Under the pieces are notes generated by a model. The model saw nothing but the letters and a program-made list of their open reading frames with translations, did no database searches and was not told the DNA's origin. From NCBI GenBank assembly GCA_000004985.1, contig GG739280.1: a stretch of 2,200 nucleotides of DNA; one strand, written 5' to 3'. Position numbers and translations under genes: made by a program. Numbering within the stretch: position 1 is the first letter of the stretch; every line of letters begins with the position of its first letter. This DNA is from Naegleria gruberi (Eukaryota). Shown here one piece after another: positions 1,676-1,822 of the stretch.

Positions 1676-1681
1676 ACTTAC
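1676..1681 (-). other. 5' splice donor (GAT|GTAAGT) that ends exon 1. The intron extends toward lower coordinates and its acceptor was not identified in the window.
   Basis: Plus-strand acttac at 1676..1681 is GTAAGT on the minus strand. It sits directly after the codon for D47, at the point where homology to OYE proteins stops. Confidence 0.55.
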
Positions 1682-1822
1682 ATCCACTGCTCTGCAACGA
1701 GTGAGTGGAGCCATCACAATACGATGGGACAAAGTAATTCTCTGAGTGGCTGGAATTTTGTCAGTTCCTAATGTGAGTGGTGTGAAAAGTTTTCTTGTTG
1801 TTGATTCGAAAGTGGCAGACAT
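1682..1822 (-). CDS. First coding exon (47 codons, starts at ATG, ends in phase 0 at a GTAAGT donor) of an Old Yellow Enzyme / 12-oxophytodienoate reductase family NADH:flavin oxidoreductase. The gene is partial, with the rest outside or undetected in the window.
   Basis: Reverse-complement translation gives [47 protein letters not shown]. The block [15 protein letters not shown] plus the upstream LFTPLxLG matches the OYE/OPR N-terminal beta-hairpin (compare plant OPR '[26 protein letters not shown]' and yeast OYE1 '[26 protein letters not shown]', both recalled from memory). The frame is immediately followed by GTAAGT on the minus strand (plus 1676..1681 = acttac). Past that point the translation loses all OYE similarity and becomes AT-rich low complexity. 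The start codon lies in an aaaATG context. Confidence 0.65.

Follow-up and report, generated by a model that had tools for sequence, protein, structure and literature searches.

An old-yellow-enzyme gene in Naegleria gruberi, probably truncated in its second exon, next to a candidate inverted-repeat element

Old-yellow-enzyme (OYE) ene-reductases are among the best-studied flavoenzyme families, and the P-L-T-R motif of OYEs is conserved, its threonine contacting the FMN in OYE1. The class I OYEs with which we compared the present locus (plant OPR1/OPR3, Artemisia DBR2, cyanobacterial and algal ene-reductases and yeast OYE1, PDB-code: 1oya; the structures also include PDB-codes 6s32, 6uff, 2hs6 and 5dxy) share with it an N-terminal hairpin and a first-strand motif. 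Its nearest relatives are the three full-length paralogs of N. gruberi, which all fall into a single cluster built at 90% identity: NAEGRDRAFT_74148 (P0011; XP_002670871.1, UniProt D2VYK0), a 383-aa NADH:flavin oxidoreductase/OYE, NAEGRDRAFT_71802 (P0125) and NAEGRDRAFT_51294 (P0127). NAEGRDRAFT_74148 covers the Pfam profile PF00724 completely (289.7 bits, profile positions 1-342) and can be aligned over its whole length with ene-reductases and OPRs of known structure, at E values from 2e-99 to 1e-72. A search with a Willaertia protein as query returned PF00724 proteins from Willaertia, N. lovaniensis and N. gruberi. For the comparison of DNA we used a 1831-nt metagenome-labelled contig (ENA ERZ929261, contig k127_463902; L002 in the following), which carries an intact N. 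gruberi-like OYE gene. Because L002 is 91% identical to our sequence over the 5′ flank and exon 1, the sample from which it came must have held Naegleria of the gruberi group.

The second system to which the locus can be compared is that of the DNA transposons with terminal inverted repeats (TIRs), including MITEs, which are recognised by these repeats, by a target-site duplication and by their multiple genomic copies. The OYE family, the intact N. gruberi genes and a gene model at the locus itself are already public; new here are only a correction of the annotation and a candidate repeat element. A search of the available literature found no paper on Naegleria OYE or on Naegleria MITEs.

The window, that is the whole stretch of DNA analysed, is an entire 2200-nt (2.2-kb) orphan scaffold of Naegleria gruberi. 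Its G+C content of 31%, together with a short GT-AG intron, is consistent with an N. gruberi origin. The features are, in the order in which the gene is read:

1823..2200, minus strand: 5′ flank of the OYE gene copy (5′ UTR region and putative promoter), from the alignment with L002; promoter by position only
1682..1822, minus strand: OYE exon 1, 47 codons (N-terminal β-hairpin and first barrel strand), from the PF00724 profile and the identity to NAEGRDRAFT_74148
1611..1681, minus strand: predicted intron 1, 71 nt, phase 0, with donor GTAAGT at 1681..1676 and acceptor ATATTAG (AG at 1612..1611), from reading frames and homologs
1581..1610, minus strand: first 10 codons (head) of exon 2, beyond which the window has no OYE homology, from L002 and NAEGRDRAFT_74148
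1498..1581, no strand: right arm of an 84-nt inverted repeat, from a repeat search; its outer edge is the end of OYE homology
1448..1580, minus strand: spuriously annotated 3′ part of “exon 2” in the gene model XP_002668141.1, a translated repeat arm
256..1497, no strand: interior between the arms, AT-rich and without recognisable coding capacity (Pfam, Rfam, tRNA and OYE searches negative)
1060..1250, minus strand: spurious annotated “exon 3” of XP_002668141.1, including its stop codon, inside the repeat-bounded interior
172..255, no strand: left arm of the 84-nt inverted repeat, from the repeat search and DNA folding
1..171, no strand: sequence outside the left arm that does not continue OYE exon 2 (no match to L002, NAEGRDRAFT_74148 or Pfam)

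An earlier note, made from the letters of the window, had proposed that the first 47 residues of an 81-aa open reading frame are the first exon of a gene of the OYE/OPR family. This assignment holds, as do the coordinates, the motif and the splice donor that were given with it. The frame runs on the minus strand at 1822..1577, its first 47 codons are 1822..1682, and GTAAGT at 1681..1676 follows directly after codon 47. Against Pfam, the 47-aa peptide has PF00724 (Oxidored_FMN) as its sole match (profile positions 1-29 of 342, E 0.0041, 16.9 bits), and the score rises to 19.6 bits for the 57 aa that can be encoded with the head of exon 2, which correspond to profile positions 1-35. The 47-aa peptide stays under the gathering score of 27 bits because the fragment spans just 8% of the domain. 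A six-frame Pfam scan of the whole window gave nothing apart from this match in exon 1.

All 56 of the 56 PDB sequences matched by the 47-aa query at E≤10 bear OYE-family names, OPR3, DBR2, PETN reductase, NemA and morphinone reductase among others, and the stretch starting KLFTPLTLG aligns with the N-termini of OPR3, DBR2, PETNR and others, as expected for the N-terminal hairpin and first strand. Across eight full-length and two partial heterolobosean-type homologs, the residues K, L, F, L, G, H, R, APLTR, R and A do not vary. A phmmer search of 1.84 billion representative proteins with the same peptide returned four matches: the 164-aa protein XP_002668141.1 (P0001; 100% identity over residues 1-47, E 7e-22), a 382-aa Willaertia magna OYE (P0004) and a metagenomic fragment (P0003), both of which align as OYE N-termini, and a 582-aa protein of SITIGTDGLPIISY repeats (P0002, E 1e-4). 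The last was rejected as a spurious match via an LTLGTDKIP segment and is not an OYE. A word-indexed protein search gave no match with the 47-aa peptide, the query being too short. In a tblastn search of the window with full-length NAEGRDRAFT_74148, aa 1-47 fall on 1822..1682 with 100% identity and aa 48-58 on 1610..1578 with 10 of 11 residues identical; the two pieces have a combined E of 1e-26. The complete identity, this E value and that of the phmmer match put the resemblance to OYE far beyond chance. At the level of sequence, the comparisons confirm the ORF as the first exon of an N. gruberi old-yellow-enzyme gene.

Exon 1 and the head of exon 2 lie in different frames and are joined only by splicing, which yields ...RAVD/GDCE... 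as in the homologs. The predicted 71-nt U2-type GT-AG intron restores the frame of a conserved protein and has comparative support, in agreement with the proposal of an intron-bearing eukaryotic gene read from right to left. The further claim that everything below 1681 is intron proved wrong: the intron covers only 1681..1611, exon 2 restarts at 1610 and OYE homology ends at 1581. L002 also has an intron at this site (526-642); it is 117 nt long and shares the GTAAGTA and ATTAG ends. The first OYE intron varies between loci: N. gruberi has it, but the single N. lovaniensis homolog compared (L001, 3091-3170) lacks it at that codon boundary and reads through as RCRALNGDCEH.

The head of exon 2 matches every Naegleria and Willaertia homolog and is identical to aa 48-57 of NAEGRDRAFT_74148. 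Base by base, it agrees with L002 643..672 in 29 of 30 positions without gap columns, and exon 1 agrees with L002 in 139 of 141, likewise without gap columns. The least conserved region is the intron (54 of 71 matches, 46 gap columns). Conserved exons and a less conserved intron are the pattern expected of real exons. Upstream of exon 1, window 2182..1823 aligns with L002 1..384, which lies upstream of the ATG of the intact homolog, with 332 matches in 360 positions, 28 mismatches and 24 gap columns. This 5′ flank is 92% identical to the intact locus, contains frame-breaking indels (including one of 17 nt and one of 4 nt) and has no Pfam match in any frame over 1823..2200. Of the earlier view that 1823 and beyond is promoter, the non-coding 5′ flank thus stands, and a promoter function would follow from position only.

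How far does the gene extend into the window? In a blastn comparison, L002 1-539 matches window 2182..1668 (91%) and L002 630-672 matches window 1623..1581 (95%), and there is no match in the window to L002 beyond its base 672. Homology to L002 and to all paralogs ends at base 1581, midway through exon 2. Past this breakpoint L002 continues its exon uninterrupted as ACTTACTACTCTCAACGTGCC..., whereas the window reads GTAGCCGGAAAG...; the first codon after the break is GTA in the window versus ACT in L002, the latter corresponding to Thr in NAEGRDRAFT_74148. The tblastn search with the full-length protein, which recovered the head of exon 2 at 1610..1578, found no OYE piece past it, all other matches in the window having E>4. 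A tail “...ISIYYSN” at the minus-strand end of the window, which resembles ITYYSQRA, was considered and rejected: a stop codon immediately precedes it, and neither blastn nor tblastn gave a match there.

The window holds 57 of the 383 OYE codons, only about 15% of the protein. The complete (β/α)8 TIM barrel with the His-x-x-His/Asn pair and the catalytic Tyr is absent from this copy, and the sequence marks it as a gene fragment rather than a functional member of the OYE family. Because only the N-terminal hairpin and first barrel strand (57 aa) are encoded, the locus as assembled would give no working flavoenzyme. Compared with NAEGRDRAFT_74148 from the same species, residues 1-57 are identical and the join across the intron site is the same. 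The window copy differs in lacking residues 58-383, including the H-x-x-N-x-Y motif and most FMN-binding residues, and in having repeat-bounded non-coding DNA after residue 57. The active-site motif (HAANGY) is found in the paralogs only, including NAEGRDRAFT_74148. Instead of an intact gene, what the assembly shows is a truncated fragment with no further OYE exon in the window.

The breakpoint coincides with the outer edge of an inverted repeat, whose arms at 172-255 and 1498-1581 are 76% complementary and lie 1242 nt apart. A 13-nt core, GCCGGAAAGATTT, is exact at 176-188 (plus strand) and 1565-1577 (minus strand), for which 0.04 matches are expected by chance; exact agreement at the arm end is confined to these inner 13 nt, and the outermost 3-4 nt could match by chance. 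Each arm also folds on itself into a hairpin around the palindrome TTTCCWGGAAA, with a DNA fold z of -5.0 in both. MicroRNA-like Rfam hairpin matches on these palindromic arms scored 20-27 bits against gathering scores of 50-90 and were dismissed as chance. Between the arms, 256..1497 gave no six-frame Pfam match, no tRNA, no OYE similarity and no Rfam match above the gathering score. The plus strand of window 440-1200 is unusually rich in CATCATCA / ATCATCATC tracts, and short direct repeats (families D2, D5, D10 and D12) occur in the same region.

Beyond the left arm, the continuation of OYE exon 2 (ACTTACTACTCTCAACGT..., TYYSQRA...) does not resume left of position 172 by blastn or tblastn: the flank 1..171 has no blastn match to L002 past 672, no tblastn match at E<4 to NAEGRDRAFT_74148 from aa 58 onward, and no Pfam match. 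L002 is an empty site for the right junction only. A search for target-site duplications of 2-9 nt at 172/1581 or 176/1577 found none that is convincing, and the flanks of the two junctions, ...GAAATTAG/TGTGGCCGG and CCGGCTACA/ATTGCATG, have no direct repeat in common. A metagenome scan with a 20-nt pattern from the repeat arm returned nine loci, all with bare, non-extending matches of 20-24 nt that we attribute to chance.

These properties resemble those of non-autonomous TIR transposons of the MITE-like or foldback-like kind in that two inverted arms of about 80 nt enclose non-coding AT-rich DNA, one arm starts at the gene breakpoint, and each arm has an internal hairpin. The window differs from them in that terminal inverted repeats are present without a target-site duplication, the metagenome scan found no second copy, the OYE gene is not taken up again past the left arm, and complementarity between the arms reaches just 76%. 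From its sequence features, 172-1581 is a candidate non-autonomous TIR or foldback element, putatively mobile, and as such of use for cataloguing Naegleria repeats.

We hypothesize that the locus is the truncated 5′ fragment of an OYE gene, from an allele or a very recent duplicate, which was cut in exon 2 by an inverted-repeat insertion or rearrangement; we put the probability of this reading at roughly 0.7. The scaffold would carry the 5′ end of the gene only, namely about 380 nt of 5′ flank, exon 1, the 71-nt intron and 10 codons of exon 2. Since its product is identical to NAEGRDRAFT_74148 through residue 57, the copy would be either an allele of that gene (a haplotig) or its very recent duplicate. 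At base 1581 the gene would then have been cut off in mid-exon by unrelated AT-rich DNA that opens with an inverted-repeat arm, most likely through insertion of, or rearrangement at, a non-autonomous TIR DNA element of about 1.4 kb. Two points here are inferred: the mobile nature of the repeat-bounded DNA, and the origin of the break in the organism and not in a join made during assembly. Against insertion counts the lack of a visible target-site duplication at 172 and 1581, and because exon 2 is not resumed left of the left arm, the event was not a clean single insertion of the element at 172-1581. A bolder and more doubtful version, which we offer tentatively, is that 172-1581 belongs to an undescribed, recently active family of non-autonomous inverted-repeat transposons of Naegleria and has knocked out one OYE allele or copy. 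If this were true, the orphan scaffold would record an insertion polymorphism in a multi-copy OYE gene.

Could the break instead be a product of the assembly, with intact OYE 5′ reads joined to an unrelated repeat region, or with repeat copies collapsed, so that no such gene exists in the organism? The scaffold is only 2200 nt long, carries a single gene model and comes from a draft shotgun assembly, and both the left flank that does not continue the gene and the missing target-site duplication would suit a chimera. A partial 249-aa model, EFC35798.1 (P0126), lies on a separate 10.5-kb N. gruberi scaffold and is an exact C-terminal substring of NAEGRDRAFT_74148, starting at residue 135; the OYE gene family has therefore yielded fragmentary or redundant scaffolds. 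This model may represent the far side of the disrupted allele seen here, or else a redundant haplotig; its orphan scaffold fits redundant haplotigs and assembly fragmentation alike. On the other hand, the join coincides with the terminus of an inverted-repeat arm and is not placed arbitrarily, which resembles a real transposon junction, and a collapsed repeat normally puts the join inside the repeat and not at its terminus. We consider an assembly chimera, the main rival, unlikely, and truncation at the inverted repeat remains our preferred reading.

The third possibility concerns the existing annotation. The exon is not hidden, as the earlier note had it, since a GenBank model already covers the ORF: XP_002668141.1 / EFC35397.1 (NAEGRDRAFT_76948), a “predicted protein” of 164 aa without functional name. 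Mapped onto the window, its exons are 1822..1682, 1610..1448 and 1250..1060 on the minus strand, and its residues 1-57 are identical to NAEGRDRAFT_74148. Taken at face value, the model describes a real expressed chimera of an OYE N-terminus and repeat-derived sequence, and the gene predictor did find exons bounded by GT..AG at 1610..1448 and 1250..1060. However, the C-terminal part (residues 58-164, about 106-107 residues) has the model itself as its sole match among 5.8 billion clustered proteins and translates the inverted-repeat arm and AT-rich filler; without a homolog, these residues look like a gene-prediction artefact. Moreover, 57 OYE residues are too few to form a TIM barrel alone. 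An expressed chimera is thus very improbable. We regard the 164-aa model as an artefact of gene prediction, in which translation was carried on into the repeat; judged by its sequence, only the first 57 residues appear biologically meaningful. NAEGRDRAFT_76948 is better described as the remnant of an OYE gene, a truncated pseudogene or a fragment of a haplotig, whose last 107 residues are artefactual. The overall importance of this correction is small, as the family is well studied and three or more intact and nearly identical copies are present in N. gruberi.

Still less probable, and contradicted by the sequence, is the arrangement to which the earlier note's intron below 1681 would lead, in which the OYE gene is intact, its first intron takes up all the remainder of the window and exon 2 lies beyond position 1. 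The consensus GTAAGT donor at the end of exon 1 and the lack of a long OYE ORF after exon 1 in the window would suit such an arrangement, but exon 2 begins just 71 nt downstream of exon 1 with 29 of 30 nt the same as in the intact homolog, where exon 2 is unbroken for hundreds of nt. The window diverges completely past 1581, in mid-exon and with no donor in a homologous context, and an exon located far downstream would require that a conserved exon be skipped or truncated.

That the ORF merely resembles OYE by chance, to which the Pfam score under the gathering threshold (16.9 vs. 27 bits) might point, can be discarded in view of the 57 aa that are 100% identical to those of a bona fide OYE (tblastn E 1e-26) and of 91% DNA identity over 541 nt to the intact OYE locus.

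The exon also shows a feature of the Naegleria and Willaertia OYEs. Compared with the class I OYEs of solved structure, their N-terminal hairpin loop is longer; in the window it corresponds to exon 1 residues 19-28 (approximately 1768..1739). In the alignment with PDB-code 6s32, an 8-residue gap lies opposite the Naegleria loop, and the loop of Willaertia is longer still.
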